Of a DNA stretch of 64,000 nt, positions 4,511-54,260 are shown piece by piece. The position numbers and the translations under genes are program-made. The stretch covers positions 1 to 64,000 of the IMG/VR virus record IMGVR_UViG_3300045988_129625; one strand, 5' to 3'. Each line of letters starts with the position of its first letter. Position 1 is the first letter of the stretch. The stretch comes from a virus. The notes beneath the pieces were generated by a model, which was not told the DNA's origin, searched no databases, and saw only the letters and a list, made by a program, of their open reading frames with translations.

Positions 4511-4795
4511 GTGAGTATAGGTGCTGCCGTTAAAATATTTTATAAGATGAAAAAAGAAGAGATTCAAACTATTTTATACACAATCAAAGAAGGAGACAGT
4601 ATTAAGATCAAAGTACAAGACAAAAGTGAAGAGATAAGACTGCGGGATCATGTAAGAAGAGTACAGAAATACGGATACAGATTTTGTTTGTCTCATTTAC
4701 ATGATGGAATTTTCTATCTGGAGAAGTTAAAAGAAGGGGATAAGGATAAATACTATAGAGTAATAAACAGAGGAAATGGAAAGACCGGAGTATAA
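4511..4795 (+). CDS. hypothetical protein (94 aa)
   Basis: ORF in array. Confidence 0.4.
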   Translation: MSIGAAVKIFYKMKKEEIQTILYTIKEGDSIKIKVQDKSEEIRLRDHVRRVQKYGYRFCLSHLHDGIFYLEKLKEGDKDKYYRVINRGNGKTGV

Positions 4796-5019
4796 CAAGC
4801 TACGTAAAATGGCTAAGACTACTCCAGGTCTGATAGTGGACGAGGCGCAAAACATGATGCGTGTATCGCTATACGATAATGGGGAACTTAAGAAGGTGGT
4901 AGTAGTAATGAAATGCGATTCTTTTTTACAGTCAAAAAGTAACATAGAAAAGATAATGTTATTATCATCTTCTATAGAAGATAGAAAAAACAAGAAAAAA
5001 AATAAAACAAAATCAGAAA

Positions 5020-5403
5020 ATGAACAGAATAACAAAAATAAGAGAAGAAATAGGAGGAAAACAGGTTGATTTGACCTTTTACGGGCGCTTTTGCAGCCTT
5101 ATCGAAGGTGATAGGAAGATAATACTAAGGGCGATAAAAAGCGGTCATAAAAAAGGCGTAATCGGAGCCATTCAGCCTGGGAGACATGATAGAATTTGGA
5201 CCACATGGTCTATTGCTTTTGATGATTTGAAGGTAGGGGATACGGTAGAGTTCAGTACATCTGGAAAATACAATCCCGGATTTCATGCTACGGAAAAGTA
5301 TGTAGGGTGTGTAGAATGGATAAGGGGATCGGAATGTGCGATAAAAACCGGCAATGGAATAGCAGTAGTATTAATTAAACATGTAGAAAGGGTGGTAAAA
5401 TAA
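5020..5403 (+). CDS. hypothetical protein (127 aa)
   Basis: ORF in array. Confidence 0.5.
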   Translation: MNRITKIREEIGGKQVDLTFYGRFCSLIEGDRKIILRAIKSGHKKGVIGAIQPGRHDRIWTTWSIAFDDLKVGDTVEFSTSGKYNPGFHATEKYVGCVEWIRGSECAIKTGNGIAVVLIKHVERVVK

Positions 5404-5684
5404 TGGATTTAAGGATGTTTATAGACCTATTTCAGGAGATTGAGGTAGAGAACTTGTTTAAAGCGTTAGATTTATGTATGGAATATGTAAGATTAGATTT
5501 ACATGTGTTTAATGTAGGAGCTTATGTAACGTGTTCATACAGTAATGATCTTGAATCTCTTTCACAGGCAGAAGGTTGTAATGTGAATATGATAATAGAG
5601 GTACCCCACTTATTCGAAGCATTCATGGAATATGCTTCACCGGAAATGAAGTTGTATTATGAAAAACTAACAGAGATAGTATAA
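5403..5684 (+). CDS. hypothetical protein (93 aa)
   Basis: ORF in array, start abuts upstream stop. Confidence 0.5.
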   Translation: MDLRMFIDLFQEIEVENLFKALDLCMEYVRLDLHVFNVGAYVTCSYSNDLESLSQAEGCNVNMIIEVPHLFEAFMEYASPEMKLYYEKLTEIV

Positions 5685-5685
5685 T

Positions 5686-6159
5686 ATGAAAGAAGAAGTA
5701 GAACGGATAAAGAAGTTGGTAGGCATAGATCATAACAGATGGGAGCAACCTTGTACATGTGATAAATGCAAGAACATGTGTAAGGTTCCTTGTATTGGTA
5801 CGCCAAAAGACATAGAGGCTATCATAGATGCCGGATACGCTGACAGGTTAAAAGGAACAATGTGGATGGTAGGGTATCTTGCAGTGAAAGAAAAACCAAT
5901 AACGATGATCCAGCCAACAGAGAAAGATGGGTGGTGCGCATTCCGCCGGCCGGACGGTCTATGCGAGCTGCATGACCGTGGACTAAAGCCGACTGAAGGA
6001 GTTCTGGCTTCTTGTAAGGTGGTTAAAGAAGACAATGTTCCAACATACGAAACATCCGTACTTAGAGCAGTAGCTCATGAGTGGGTTAAAGTGGAGAACT
6101 TTGGAGATGTAATGAGGGTCGTTTTTAAATTTTTGCATGAAAATGAACGTAGAAAATGA
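5686..6159 (+). CDS. hypothetical Cys-rich protein (157 aa)
   Basis: ORF; CTCDKCKNMCKVPC motif. Confidence 0.55.
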   Translation: MKEEVERIKKLVGIDHNRWEQPCTCDKCKNMCKVPCIGTPKDIEAIIDAGYADRLKGTMWMVGYLAVKEKPITMIQPTEKDGWCAFRRPDGLCELHDRGLKPTEGVLASCKVVKEDNVPTYETSVLRAVAHEWVKVENFGDVMRVVFKFLHENERRK

Positions 6160-6547
6160 ATTAGATAAAGTAGTTAAGATCCTAAAAGAAAAAGGATTTG
6201 TAGTATATAGAAAGGGTGGAAAAGAGCCAGGTGTGTTTTACGCTAAAGAAGGTGACAGTCGAATAGGGTTCGTTTATCCTAATAACGGATATATATATGA
6301 CAGAATAAAAATGTGGTCTTTTTCAAGAATGTACAAACCACATAAGAAAACCGGATCTTCGTGCTTAATGTGTGTCAGCGACGAATTTACGATAGAGAAT
6401 GCGATTAAGAACATAGAGGATAGACTGTGGGTAAATTACATAAAAGACGGTAGCAGAAAACGACCAGAAGAATATAAAAATATAAGAGAATTTGTTGGTA
6501 GCTTCACTAAATTCTACAGCTCTGTAGAATTAGTTGAAGTTAAGTAG
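6137..6547 (+). CDS. hypothetical protein (136 aa)
   Basis: ORF in array. Confidence 0.55.
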   Translation: MKMNVENELDKVVKILKEKGFVVYRKGGKEPGVFYAKEGDSRIGFVYPNNGYIYDRIKMWSFSRMYKPHKKTGSSCLMCVSDEFTIENAIKNIEDRLWVNYIKDGSRKRPEEYKNIREFVGSFTKFYSSVELVEVK

Positions 6548-18900: not shown

Positions 18901-19170
18901 TTGGAAAGTATAAATTCCTTCAATAACACTTTGAAAAATGCCAATGAAATTAAAGACAGGGTGTTGAAATACGTGTACAACATAAAACAAGAGCGTTCAT
19001 ATAACAATGACCTGGTTGGCATCTTTGAAAGGTATAAAGATATAGCAGACGGTGATATGGAGGTAGCTATGAATTTTATTAAGGAGGCCTATCCATTCAA
19101 TGAAGAAACAGAATCGTTTATCAGGAAAAAGTTTGACATGCCTATACCGGACGAATCAAAAGAGCAGTAA
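18901..19170 (+). CDS. hypothetical protein (89 aa)
   Basis: ORF in array. Confidence 0.4.
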   Translation: MESINSFNNTLKNANEIKDRVLKYVYNIKQERSYNNDLVGIFERYKDIADGDMEVAMNFIKEAYPFNEETESFIRKKFDMPIPDESKEQ

Positions 19171-19572
19171 TTAAGCCAAATTAAATCATTTTGAATCTTT
19201 TTTATTATCAAAAGACATATCTTTGCCCAAAAAAAACAAACATAATGGAAGAAAAAGAGATAAAAGAAGCAATAATCGAGAATAATGCATAACCCATACA
19301 AATCATAAACAATTTGTATTGTATTATGCATAATAGCCAAAAGCTATTCCGATTATTAGCCTAAGTGTTGAAACAAACACTACGTTATTTAAGAATAGAT
19401 AGTTACCTACGGATGTTTGCCCAAGTTCGTAGCTCTAAGGTAAGTGATTAAACAGTTCTGGTATTCAGGAACAGTGTTGCTTACAAAAAAAACCTTAAAT
19501 AACATTGGCGATGGGTACTAACAGAGTTTCACTCTGACTTATGTTGAATAAACATTAAAAACGTTTGTAGAT
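19171..19572 (+). ncRNA. candidate IscB omega RNA / IS200-605 left-end region
   Basis: 400-bp non-coding stretch immediately 5' of iscB; nested hairpin ATGCATAA-ATACAAAT-[cataaaca]-ATTTGTAT-TTATGCAT (19285-19331); TTACCT..AGGTAA/CTACG..CGTAG structure near 19390-19440; CAGAGT-ttc-ACTCTG and ATGTT..AACAT stems just before the ATG. Confidence 0.5.
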
Positions 19573-20799
19573 ATGGTGTACGTACAAGACATAAATGGTA
19601 AACCTATGATGCCTACAACAAGGCATGGTAAGGTTAGGAGACTGCTTAAAGACAAAAAGGCAATCGTTGTAAACCTATGTCCGTTTACCATCAAATTAAT
19701 GTACGTAACATCTGATTACAAACAAGAAATTGTGTTAGGCGTTGATGCTGGTACTAAACATGTTGGTCTATCGGCTACAACGAAAAGCAAAGAACTTTAC
19801 AGCAGTGAAGTTATTCTTAGAAATGATATCGTAGATCTTTTGTCTACCAGAAGGGAGCTACGAAGATCAAGACGAAATAGATTGAGATATAGAAAACCTC
19901 GTTTTGATAATAGAATAAAAAGTAGGCGTCCGGGATGAGTAGCACCTTCGGTGAAATACAAAGTAGACGCCCATATTCGTGTTATTGACAATGTATGTTC
20001 TATATTACCAATATCTCGTATTGTTATCGAAGTAGCTCAATTTGATACTCAAAAGATTAACAATCCTAATATATCAGGTAAAGAATATCAGGAGGGTGAT
20101 CAACTTGGATTTTGGAACGTTAGGGAATATGTTTTAGCAAGAGATGGACATAAATGCCAGCATTGTAAGGGAAAGTCAAAAGACCCAGTATTGAATGTTC
20201 ATCATATTGAATCACGAAAGACAGGTGGAGATTCCCCATCTAATCTTATTACCTTATGTGAAACTTGTCATAAAGAATACCATAAAGGTAATATAGATTT
20301 AAAGATCAAACGGGGATCGTCGCTTCGCGACGCAGCCGTAATGGGAATAATGAAATGGAGATTGTATGAAGAACTAAGGTCTAAATACAACAGAGTTTCT
20401 ATGACTTTCGGTTATGTTACAAAATACAATAGGATTAAACATGGTATTGAAAAATCTCATGTTTTCGATGCATTTGTTATTTCTAAAAACTTTGATGCTA
20501 TAAGGTTAGGATATTATTATAAAGTAAGATTAGTAAGAAGACATAATCGTCAGATCCATAAACAAAAGATTCCAAAAGGAGGGATAAAAAGACCAAATCA
20601 ATCTCCTTTTGAAGTTTTTGGTTTCCGATTGTTTGATAGGGTTATGTTTGAAAACAGTTATTATTTTATATTCGCAAGGCGTAAAACCGGTAGTTTTAAT
20701 ATTCGAGATATTGATGGTAAAAACCAAAGAGATATTACATACAAGAAATTGAAATTATCAAGGTGTAAACGCTTTATGGTACAAAAGGAAATGGATTGA
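19573..20799 (+). CDS. iscB: IscB RNA-guided nuclease (PLMP-RuvC-I-bridge helix-RuvC-II-HNH-RuvC-III) interrupted by one in-frame TGA at 19936-19938
   Basis: PLMP-like N-term (KPMMPTTRHGKVRRLLK), RuvC-I LGVDAGTKHVGLS, Arg-rich bridge helix RRELRRSRRNRLRYRKPRFDNR, RuvC-II IVIEVAQFD, HNH CQHCKGK..NVHHIESRK..LCETCH, RuvC-III SHVFDAF; ORFs 19573-19938 and 19951-20799 are in the same frame, separated only by TGA + 12 nt. Confidence 0.85.
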
Positions 20800-20822
20800 T
20801 TAATTTGAATAAAAATATAGAC

Positions 20823-21293
20823 ATGAATCGTTGGTTTGAAATTACGGTAAAAGCCGAGATTGATAATATCGAGAACGGCAAAAAAAAGAAAGTAACTGAA
20901 AAGTATTTAGTGGATGCCTTGTCTTACACAGAGGCAGAATCAAGATCGTTGGAGATCTTCAAGGATTTGTACAATTCTTTCGAGGTTGTAAAAATTAATC
21001 CTATTAAAGTGTCGGAAATCTTCTTCAACGGAGAAGCTGAGTACTGGTATAAGTGTAAGGTGAATTACATTACACTGGATGAAAAGAAAGGTAAAGAAAA
21101 GAAAACTCCATGCTATATGTATATCCAGGCCGGCAATCCTAAGGATGCCGAAGCTGTGTTGACTAAAGGTATGCAGGGTACGTTAGGAGACTGGAATTGC
21201 GAGTCTATTGTGGAAACGAAAATCATTGAAGTGTTTAAATACGATCTTCAGAAGGGAGCTGAAAAATTAGGCGAGAAGAAGAGTGAAGAGTAA
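20823..21293 (+). CDS. hypothetical protein (start trimmed from TTG 20796 to ATG 20823)
   Basis: First ATG in frame; begins 23 nt after iscB stop. Confidence 0.5.
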   Translation: MNRWFEITVKAEIDNIENGKKKKVTEKYLVDALSYTEAESRSLEIFKDLYNSFEVVKINPIKVSEIFFNGEAEYWYKCKVNYITLDEKKGKEKKTPCYMYIQAGNPKDAEAVLTKGMQGTLGDWNCESIVETKIIEVFKYDLQKGAEKLGEKKSEE

Positions 21294-21522: not shown

Positions 21523-21995
21523 TGATAAGAAGTCATGGCTTATGCCAGGCTTGCAGGAGTAAAGAGTTGACTCCGAAGAAAAAAGACAGAATTACATCCA
21601 TTAAAAACAGCAGCAAGAAGAAAAAGTTAGAGAACACGGATTTATCCGTGTTTTTTCGTCTTATGCTGGAAGAGTTAAATAATAGTCGGATGTCTATGAC
21701 CGGTAAGGCTATTCATTTTCCTACAGTATGTAACGTCTGTCACATACTTCCGAAAAGGATATATAAGTCGGTTGCTACTTGCAGGGATAATATAGTTTTC
21801 CTTCATGAATCGGAGCATACGGTATTCGACATGTATCTTGACCGGATGGAATTTGATAAACTTGAAACAGAATTTCCTTTTGTGTGGAAGTATGCGGTAA
21901 AGAAGGTACTGGATATGGAAAGCAGAGGAATGATCAAGGAAAGAGGTAGGTTGATTATTGAAATAATTGATAGATATGATAGAAGAAAAGATTAA
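21468..21995 (+). CDS. hypothetical Zn-ribbon protein (175 aa)
   Basis: CEKCGRK..CQACRS. Confidence 0.5.
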   Translation: MESKEKKLYVCEKCGRKVMIRSHGLCQACRSKELTPKKKDRITSIKNSSKKKKLENTDLSVFFRLMLEELNNSRMSMTGKAIHFPTVCNVCHILPKRIYKSVATCRDNIVFLHESEHTVFDMYLDRMEFDKLETEFPFVWKYAVKKVLDMESRGMIKERGRLIIEIIDRYDRRKD

Positions 21996-52689: not shown

Positions 52690-54260
52690 ATCCCACTATG
52701 ACAAACCCTAATGAGCCAAAAATATCTTTCAACATTAAACAACCAGAGGTGGGATCTCGTTGTTCATTGTTTCTGAAACAAAGATAGGAACAGAATCTTA
52801 AATAGCAAATATTTTAATACTTTTTAAAACGATCAGGGCCCGCATCACTGCGAACCCTGATCTACATTAATCTAAACTAATACCATGAAAAACTTAAATC
52901 TAAAAACTAAAGAACACACAAATGTAGGTGATTATATATCACCTTACGCCAGAAGCGTAAAGTGATACACATTTATACGGAAATCCGTACTGGGTTCCAC
53001 CAAAACCCTCTACCTTCTGGTAACATCGTTACATCAAAGGATTCTTTTTCTGATTTTCTAATGATGTTAAAAGCACCATTAATGTCAGCATTGATGATCT
53101 TACCAAACGAGGTTTTAAACAATCCCCGTTTGGTTCTTCTTCCTTTGTAAGATTCATGTTTGCAAATCCGTTCATTATCCAAAAAGCTACATTTTGAAGT
53201 ATAAGATTCTTCAACAATCTTAACATTAATACCTTCTAATGTTGCTTTATAAGATATCATTGAGATAAACATATTAAAAGGAATAGATACAAAGTTCTGA
53301 TTATTTCGTTTTCCAATATTGATCTCTTGTTTCCAGCATTTGTTATGACCGATTATGATCGTGTTAATACCATTGGAAACTACGTGATTAACCAATATCC
53401 TACTTGCCTTATGAAGATAATCTTTGATCTTATTATTCCTTTTGTTAGTTAATAACCTGATTTGTTTTGAAGTATGTTTATTATCTTTTAATTTAGATTT
53501 TAAATATGAAAGTCTTTTGTTATAATACTGGTTGATAGACTTCAGTGGTCTACCATTGATGATAAAACAAGAACCGTTATTAGAAACACAAGATGCTAAA
53601 TTATCTAATCCTATGTCGATACCAAGATAAGATCCATTATATGACATAAGATCCTTTTCCTTCTTATTGTAAACTATTTCAAGAATAATGTACCCATTCT
53701 TAGGAATGAATCTAAGTTGTTGGATATTTTGTTTATTGGTTCTTGTTGTAAAGGAAAACTGTTTTGGTAACTTAACAATGCCTTGTTTTATCCATTTTTG
53801 AGAAAAAGCATTTGTTGCAAAAACAGCAGGAAACAAACCATCCTTGTTGAGATACTTTGGCATTCTTACTTCCTCATAATACTCACCTCTATTCTTTTTA
53901 TTTAAAAGATTGAAGAACGATTTAAAGTTTCTATCAACCATCATCAACACTTGTTGAGCAACCGGTACTGGTAAAGCACGATAGTCGACATCGTTTTCTG
54001 TTTTTAGTTTCTTTTCAAGAGAATAGTAGTTTAGGTATTTGTATTTTACAGTATTATCATCTTTATATTGAAAATAATGTTGCCTAACAACATACAATCC
54101 TTTGTTGTATAAGTTTTTACACTTATGCAACAGGTCATAAAGTTCATTGTAATAGACAGAACTTGGCTTGATCGTATGTTGTTCAACTAATCTCATGGCA
54201 CAAATGTATGAAAATGTATGCTTTTCACAAAGAATCTGTATCCTATTCTTTTGTGTGATT
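52690..54260 (-). mobile_element. IS605-family TnpB-only element or its relic; ends approximate
   Basis: About 300 bp non-coding 3' of tnpB with three perfect hairpins (GATCAGGG..CCCTGATC, GGTGAT-tatata-ATCACC, CTTACGC-cagaa-GCGTAAG) and ~450 bp non-coding on the 5' side. Confidence 0.35.
52973..54196 (-). CDS. tnpB: divergent TnpB-like protein lacking the canonical RuvC-II Glu and the CxxC zinc finger
   Basis: RuvC-I YLGIDIGLDNLA; the YIFIEDLNIEGMK position of the other TnpB reads TIIIGHNKCWKQE; YTSKCSFLDNERICKHE replaces CxxC..CxxC; RuvC-III INADINGAFNIIRK retained. Confidence 0.8.
   Translation of the reverse strand: MRLVEQHTIKPSSVYYNELYDLLHKCKNLYNKGLYVVRQHYFQYKDDNTVKYKYLNYYSLEKKLKTENDVDYRALPVPVAQQVLMMVDRNFKSFFNLLNKKNRGEYYEEVRMPKYLNKDGLFPAVFATNAFSQKWIKQGIVKLPKQFSFTTRTNKQNIQQLRFIPKNGYIILEIVYNKKEKDLMSYNGSYLGIDIGLDNLASCVSNNGSCFIINGRPLKSINQYYNKRLSYLKSKLKDNKHTSKQIRLLTNKRNNKIKDYLHKASRILVNHVVSNGINTIIIGHNKCWKQEINIGKRNNQNFVSIPFNMFISMISYKATLEGINVKIVEESYTSKCSFLDNERICKHESYKGRRTKRGLFKTSFGKIINADINGAFNIIRKSEKESFDVTMLPEGRGFWWNPVRISV

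Follow-up and report, generated by a model that had tools for sequence, protein, structure and literature searches.

The window analysed here, a whole stretch of 64,000 nucleotides of viral DNA, carries an iscB gene preceded by about 400 bp in which no credible ORF is found. The locus raises the question of what this leader is, and whether it forms with iscB a mobile insertion or a unit taken over by the phage. The first-pass annotation, made from the sequence alone, had proposed 19171-19572 as a candidate omega RNA and offered two readings of the unit, a minimal IS200/IS605 insertion or a domesticated nuclease with its RNA. It is highly probable that the segment from 19272 to about 19555 is an IscB omega RNA, forming the right-end module of a 1551-bp non-autonomous element of the IS200/IS605 type (19272-20822), which is inserted in a crAss-like human-gut phage directly 5' of the ATG of a DUF4494 gene. 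The RNA, the protein and the type of element are all already known; the RNA, under the names HEARO and IscB omega RNA, has reportedly been treated by Weinberg et al. in 2010 and Altae-Tran et al. in 2021. No description of the phage-borne IscB family or of its start-codon insertion pattern was found in the searchable literature. The locus comprises the following features.

19171-19271 (+): left flank, phage intergenic sequence and the first codons of a small ORF, outside the element; 92-96% identity to element-free relatives.
19256-19271 (+): candidate guide AGAGATAAAAGAAGCA, 16 nt directly 5' of the scaffold, placed after the published IscB architecture.
19272-20822 (+): whole mobile element, 1551 bp, with omega RNA and iscB and no transposase gene; from the occupied-versus-empty comparison and multi-site conservation.
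19272-19555 (+): omega RNA scaffold (HEARO), which is the transposon right end; from the Rfam match, the start of conservation, P1 compensation, pair counts and fold z.
19272-78 with 19350-56 (+): P1 stem, compensatory across three right-end types.
19285-19331 (+): long hairpin, inside P1.
19332-19348 (+): short hairpin, inside P1.
19330-19522 (+): Rfam HEARO core, from the covariance-model match.
19522-36 and 19541-55 (+): 3' hairpins, the 3' part of the scaffold.
19573-20799 (+): iscB, 408 codons with an in-frame TGA, a pseudogene in the window copy; from translation, Pfam, PDB and the comparison at codon 122.
20800-20822 (+): terminal 23 nt, the left end (LE) in the transposase frame, serving the next gene as A-rich leader; conserved across sites as far as the ATG.
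20823-20825 (+): putative target-adjacent motif ATG (CAT in transposase orientation), the DUF4494 start codon; ATG at 14/14 sites, clean empty sites.
20823-21293 (+): DUF4494 gene, from a Pfam match.

A scan of the whole window against Rfam gave only one match above the gathering score, HEARO (RF02033), at 19330-19522 on the plus strand. This match scores 113.1 bits (gathering score 83; E = 1.5e-22) and covers model positions 1-211 of 211. It lies on the same strand as iscB, directly 5' of the ORF with the Pfam domains RRXRR and HNH, and the omega RNA as delimited here, from 19272 to about 19555, precedes the iscB start at 19573 (+). The covariance-model search thus bears out the proposal of an omega RNA in the leader. 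The proposed extent of 400 bp is too long: 19272-19572 belongs to the element and 19171-19271 is ordinary phage flank. HEARO has been equated with the omega RNA of IscB, and its Rfam model lacks structural elements located further downstream (Meers et al., PMC10055086). Extra hairpins 3' of the model, as these authors describe, are also found here. The pseudoknot-forming GCC...GGC and the core helices of HEARO are conserved and, as in that family, the scaffold starts at the transposon end, with the variable 5' flank as the candidate guide.

The scaffold really starts upstream of the Rfam alignment, at the transposon terminus 19272. Its terminal seven bases, ATAATCG (19272-78), complement CGATTAT (19350-56), situated just 5' of a conserved TAGCC, and the two form the P1 stem. 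Three end types are found among the copies (ATAATCG/CGATTAT, ATAACCC/GGGTTAT and ATATCCG/CGGATAT). As the other two types pair at the same positions, P1 is kept by fully compensatory changes; a subfamily with ATTCTCG or ATTTTCG termini shows weaker P1 pairing (5/7). P1 encloses the nested hairpin noticed in the first pass, which is indeed present at 19285-19331. Its outer arms are ATGCATAA (19285-19292) with TTATGCAT (19324-19331), its inner arms ATACAAAT (19296-19303) with ATTTGTAT (19312-19319). In this long hairpin and in the short one that follows, the sequence varies among copies and the pairing is kept. The fold of 19256-19360 has a z of -7.4 on the plus strand, with 0 of 200 shuffles as good. 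The Rfam alignment begins only at 19330 because this insert in P1 exceeds what the model allows. Two features thus set the RNA apart from HEARO as modelled, the large family-specific insert enclosed by P1 (47-nt and 17-nt hairpins) and the three interchangeable 5' modules within one phage family.

Covariation supports the whole structure. RNAalifold predicted 40 pairs from 26 diverse copies, 14 of them compensatory. Together with P1, the short hairpin and the hairpin at 19541-55, this consensus gives a 56-pair structure, which was scored on 26 relatives. The bases are paired in 95.7% of 1442 cells, in comparison with 29-42% in slid controls. Changes on both sides affect 21 of the 56 pairs, against 3-7 in the slid controls, and 0 of 500 shuffles reach the observed values. 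The covariation score is 0.284, compared with 0.143 ± 0.007 in the shuffles (again 0/500). Among the smaller stems listed in the first-pass annotation, CTACG..CGTAG (19408-12 / 19428-32) and CAGAGT-ttc-ACTCTG (19522-19536) belong to the consensus structure and show compensatory changes. The stem TTACCT..AGGTAA is to be dropped: it lies outside the Rfam and RNAalifold consensus, and AGGTAA takes part in another helix (19440-48 with 19476-84). The minus-strand ORF at 19089-19340, judged probably spurious in the first pass, is regarded as spurious here too; it is antisense to the covarying RNA as well as to the 3' end of a conserved upstream plus-strand gene.

Over 65% of a query of 6.5 kb, the window shares 93% identity with csAssE-Sib, a human-gut phage (OR575929, 151 kb). 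The annotation of csAssE-Sib includes ring and muzzle proteins, which we take to be names of crAss-like structural proteins, and a diversity-generating retroelement; a literature search on this phage found no papers. It is without the iscB unit and has an 86-aa ORF in its place. The left flank of the unit (19171-19271) is 79% identical to csAssE-Sib. The corresponding small phage ORF of the window, with its ATG at 19246, is truncated, only its first 15 codons being left, compared with 86 aa in element-free relatives.

The comparison with element-free related phages, which the first-pass annotation had suggested, defined the ends of the element. Copies at different sites match the window from 19271-19276 to 20825-20830 and not past these positions. 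On the left, conservation starts with AT(AA/TC/TT)TCGCGAATAAT and the preceding sequence is site-specific; on the right, it runs through ...AAAATATAGAC and ATG, and site-specific sequence follows. The copies occupy at least 14 sites, sharing a common sequence from 19272 on and differing wholly upstream. At eight of these sites csAssE-Sib is without the element, and five of the comparisons with this phage (L022, L024, L025, L032, L043) are exact to the base, showing insertion 5' of an ATG with neither duplication nor loss. In one example (junctions marked by slashes), the empty allele TTTATATC/ATGAAAG stands against the occupied TTTGTATC/ATAATCGCG...ATATAGAT/ATGAAGG. From these comparisons the window element extends over 19272-20822, with the terminal sequences ATAATCGCGAATAAT... 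and ...AAAATATAGAC, and is followed by the ATG at 20823-20825. This agrees with the first-pass observation that the next gene begins 23 nt past the iscB stop (stop 20797-20799, ATG 20823).

In the main subfamilies, the element is directly followed by an ATG at 14/14 sites. At 10 of these 14 the ATG begins an ORF of 82-919 aa and is therefore regarded there as the start codon of a gene; at one site a tRNA gene lies downstream of the insertion. For the window's own site, 80 related loci were collected by searching IMG/VR with the protein of the downstream DUF4494 gene, and the element is present in 16 of them and absent from 64. Another IMG/VR scan, with the IscB protein, showed that at least 302 stretches encode relatives, some contigs having two copies. 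The best 80 of these are 81-100% identical and lie on phage contigs of mostly 76-190 kb, with a few shorter fragments and one contig of 253 kb. In view of the identical termini at 14 or more sites, it is unlikely that loss of an ancestral phage gene, and not insertion, produced the presence/absence pattern.

No TnpA was found among the Pfam families listed for the 77 window ORFs, in the csAssE-Sib annotation or near any fetched copy of the element. A tblastn search over 1.69 Mb with an IS200 TnpA gave no match either, although this is a weak test. Since no Y1 transposase was found, the element is considered non-autonomous, and its transposase-mediated mobility is deduced from the junctions only. 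The junction rule, the multi-site distribution and the architecture would place it with the IscB elements of the IS200/IS605 group, of which TnpA and a left-end hairpin are two defining features. The omega RNA end carries a strong, covarying subterminal hairpin; at the other end, in the last 126 nt (20700-20825), no significant hairpin was detected (z ~0). In the published IscB elements, the scaffold derives from the right end (RE), the guide lies outside the RE and transcription enters from outside; the target-adjacent motif (TAM) in Geobacillus is TTCAT, whose reverse complement on the iscB strand is ATGAA (Meers et al., PMC10055086). The geometry found here fits this scheme, with iscB antisense to the transposase frame, the scaffold as right end and the target motif flanking the left end.

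The closest parallel is provided by the ISGst IscB elements of Geobacillus stearothermophilus (IS200/IS605; Meers et al., PMC10055086). Both are non-autonomous units of omega RNA and iscB with the guide (a candidate one here) outside the RE, no target duplication and protein-less derivatives, and in both a short motif flanks the other end (TTCAT in ISGst, which is ATGAA on the iscB strand, and ATG(R) here). In contrast to ISGst, which resides in a bacterial chromosome, the host here is a lytic-type crAss-like phage, neither a cognate TnpA nor an LE hairpin was detected, and the surviving insertions are almost always exactly at the start codons of phage genes. The element may also be compared with the free-standing HNH homing endonucleases of phages, such as Seg and Mob of T4, which are likewise small nuclease genes between conserved phage genes with presence/absence polymorphism. 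Those enzymes recognize their targets by protein, whereas here recognition would be by an RNA guide and a 3-nt motif; the present element differs too in having defined transposon termini and in moving to unrelated sites.

At the window's own site the insertion is not a simple one. About 240 bp of the small ORF, present in the empty alleles, have no counterpart here between the left junction and the ATG of the DUF4494 gene. The right junction of the element is constant at this site, and the left junction takes at least six forms in different phages (window 19246-19271 versus L002, L006, L007, L009 and L010). A base-by-base comparison of six junction types placed two of them, ATAGTAA/ATGAAG and AACAGA/ATGGAAG, exactly 5' of an ATG in the naive allele. 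The window junction, GAAGC[T]/ATGATT, also lies 5' of an ATG but for one changed base, A for T at 19271. As ATG occurs at about 4% of the segment positions, the placement of the junctions was judged to be non-random, on a small sample. Such junctions would fit an adjacent deletion by a TnpA-type enzyme, the right end being joined beyond a nearby target motif; recombination between copies at neighbouring ATGs would fit them too. Nested left junctions are seen at two more sites (L044 versus L048, L024 versus L068).

The 5'-proximal bases were inspected as a guide, as the first-pass annotation had proposed. In the published IscB architecture the guide is 5'-adjacent to the transposon right end and outside it (PMC10055086), and a length of 16 nt was assumed from known IscBs. 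The candidate guide thus delimited has a 15/16 match, AGAGATAAAAGAAGCT followed by ATGATT, in 66 related loci, the mismatch being the last base. In the alleles that keep the small ORF, the matching position is the corresponding point of this ORF. No better target of the guide was found within the window. About 45 nt upstream of the element, TATCTTTG (19218-19225) is preceded by TTTG (19190-93) and is a possible source of a guide-containing transcript. TTTG ... TATCTTTG resembles the Bacteroidetes -33/-7 promoter consensus. Motifs of the TATCTTTG type are not enriched in the window (8 matches versus 5.1 expected), and a sigma-70 scan remained at background level.

The protein encoded by iscB is a compact IscB. 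Its product matches Pfam RRXRR (3.5e-60, residues 2-175) and HNH (4.3e-09, residues 195-238) and aligns to solved IscB chains, including OgeuIscB, with E of about 1e-42 to 1e-44. A RuvC domain split by the HNH insertion, an Arg-rich bridge helix and an N-terminal PLMP segment are all present. This organization is that of OgeuIscB, which comes from a human-gut metagenome (PDB 7utn, 7xht; PLMP-type segment, E = 1e-42). In comparison with the 496 aa of OgeuIscB, the window gene has 408 codons, is only distantly similar and phage-carried, and contains a premature stop. The gene extends over 19573-20799, and its in-frame TGA at 19936-19938 was overlooked in the first-pass annotation. This TGA is codon 122, the position of a conserved Trp122, and TGG is found in 98/98 relatives readable there. 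The reading frame of the window iscB is thus interrupted, and most of the scored relatives are fully intact.

A sequencing or assembly error as the source of the TGA was ruled out, as the exact 121-aa truncated product is called on seven contigs from independent samples (ENA, JGI and Logan). Because this allele occurs in seven independent assemblies, the window copy is a real, circulating pseudogene. Of the four TGA contigs compared, three match the window at 99.9-100% identity across 4.7-6.4 kb and have the same left junction; one of the three is a 153,986-bp scaffold (ENA ERZ28659079 scaffold_85). The fourth contig, L178, has the same TGA in a second lineage, with about 10 substitutions clustered within 190 bp around codon 122. 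This patch covers gene nt 230-440 (window 19802-20012) and includes changes such as GTA to ACA and AAA to CGG; outside the patch, the gene does not differ from the window iscB, and no donor allele for the patch was found among 80 relatives. Sporadic decay is seen in other copies as well, L005, L006 and L027 containing stops and L128 an internal deletion. The intact copies have a median dN/dS of 0.088 over 55 pairs, with a maximum of 0.19 and dS of up to 1.4; the IscB family is under strong purifying selection. We conclude that iscB became a pseudogene recently in the window copy, which travels with a successful phage lineage.

Three other readings of the locus have to be weighed. According to one, the TGA at 19936-19938 is read as Trp, either through recoding as in some crAss-like phages or through programmed read-through throttling IscB, so that the unit would be functional. 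The TGA does fall exactly on a conserved Trp codon, it occurs in seven contigs from independent samples and it persists in the second lineage, which differs by the patch of substitutions around it. However, every other gene of the window reads under the standard code, two of them being ORFs of 2145 and 2117 aa, and wherever else two ORFs meet in the same frame, a stop followed by a start marks an ordinary gene boundary. The window contains no tRNA, no suppressor tRNA is annotated in csAssE-Sib, and each of the 98 scored relatives has TGG. TGG to TGA is moreover a single transition, and a few other copies have also decayed. A functional unit is therefore very unlikely in our view. An alternative code used throughout the phage, with TGA, TAG or TAA as sense, was likewise rejected, the window giving no sign of recoding, ordinary gene boundaries and no tRNA.

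The unit might also be a domesticated IscB with its omega RNA, of benefit to the phage (e.g., by cutting competing phages or host DNA) and fixed in an early operon. Such a role would agree with the strong purifying selection on IscB in the phage family, with the abundance of the family in viral contigs (at least 302 stretches, in comparison with nine relatives in bacterial genomes) and with the match between the guide and alleles found in related phages. Synteny and an intact frame would be expected of a fixed, beneficial gene, whereas this unit is missing from 64 of 80 relatives at the window's site, has many alternative sites with a guide that changes from site to site, behaves as an insertion with defined termini and carries a nonsense codon here. 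Domestication is accordingly very unlikely. The choice left by the first-pass annotation falls on the minimal IS200/IS605 insertion, supported by the absence from relatives, the many sites and the clean ends; the domesticated alternative is unsupported for the window copy, because its nuclease gene carries the nonsense codon. The least probable reading, to which we give hardly any weight, is that of an ordinary phage intergenic or regulatory leader with terminator or attenuator hairpins unrelated to IscB. It takes its arguments from 19171-19271, which is phage sequence present without iscB, and from a terminator-like pattern flagged at 19522-19536. That hairpin covaries as a part of the RNA, however, and 19272-19572 travels with iscB to every site. 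For 19272-19572 this reading is refuted by the HEARO match above the gathering score, by the absence from empty alleles and by the covariation.

With the locus read as an IscB element, a mechanism can be proposed by analogy with known systems. The omega RNA would be made by transcription entering from the upstream phage genes on the same strand. Its first ~16 nt (19256-19271), derived from the phage flank, would serve as guide, and the rest would fold into the scaffold bound by IscB. An intact IscB-omega RNA complex is expected to cut guide-matched DNA with an adjacent ATG target motif. This DNA would be an element-free allele, either the excision product or that of a co-infecting phage without the element, and recombinational repair could copy the element back into the cut allele. 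New insertions would need a TnpA transposase supplied in trans. The nuclease gene of the window copy is inactivated by the change from TGG to TGA at codon 122. The RNA may still be made, but without another IscB of that genome to use it the unit is a passenger in decay.

More tentatively, crAss-like phages may have in this IscB family an RNA-guided homing element, a possibility that we consider less likely than not. As the target motif would be ATG, surviving insertions would be placed exactly at start codons and would be harmless there. Because the guide would derive from the flank, an intact copy would cleave the element-free allele brought in by a co-infecting phage, and the element would be copied in during repair. 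The nested left junctions would record transposase-type events resetting the guide. In a 2026 review of OMEGA systems, such "transposon non-restorative homing" between co-infecting phages is described as still theoretical (PMC13565253).

The annotation of the locus is settled as a known RNA family, a known nuclease and a known transposon type; the boundaries are exact, and both a disabling mutation and a candidate for the guide have been located. The phage family also offers a natural data set of several hundred contigs. It includes numerous insertion sites together with the corresponding empty alleles, copies both intact and decayed, and omega RNA derivatives that lack the protein. Two questions could be addressed with it: whether OMEGA nucleases drive the spread of elements from one co-infecting virus to another, and how the places where such elements can survive depend on a target motif of 3 nt. 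The compact IscB of 408 aa with its apparent ATG motif may be of interest to genome-editing groups, an interest of the conventional kind.

Derivatives of the element were observed among the fetched loci. An element of 541 bp in L118 (5154-5694) has an omega RNA of the ATAACCC... end type and is without iscB. The same iscB-less element is found in L121, L122, L128, L131, L134, L137, L140 and L153. A 59-aa ORF replaces iscB in it, and the TGA of this ORF overlaps the ATG of the next gene. The insertion lies exactly 5' of the ATG of a replication-factor gene, where the window is empty at 21976 (...GATAGAT/ATGATAGAAG). In another subfamily (L029-L031, L034 and L061, about 4725-6250), the end hairpin is shorter and the right end carries its own ATG (...AAAAATATGAAT/AACGG). 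The insertion falls among the first codons of a gene, for which csAssE-Sib has the empty allele ATGGCAATAACAGGTAACAACGG. With its own ATG at the right end and its position inside the first codons, this element seems to supply a new start codon.

A scan of bacterial genomes gave nine IscB relatives, distant or probably phage-derived, the best being 79% and 69% identical; none of these nine matches has a TnpA neighbour. The closest relatives in the bacterial collection, L166 (a contig labelled Vibrio olivae) and L167 (a Phocaeicola MAG), are on short contigs, and L166 shows yet another end type. Both may be phage contigs or contamination rather than host copies.

Other OMEGA-type genes are present in these phages. 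A 408-aa gene of csAssE-Sib annotated as "TnpB family" was examined as a possible IscB; it has no tblastn similarity to IscB and is therefore regarded as a true TnpB. The window itself carries two TnpB genes on the minus strand, at 32808-33980 (390 aa) and 52973-54193 (406 aa), with the Pfam domains OrfB_IS605 and Cas12f1-like TNB. Together with iscB, this gives three OMEGA-type nuclease genes in a 64-kb stretch of one phage.
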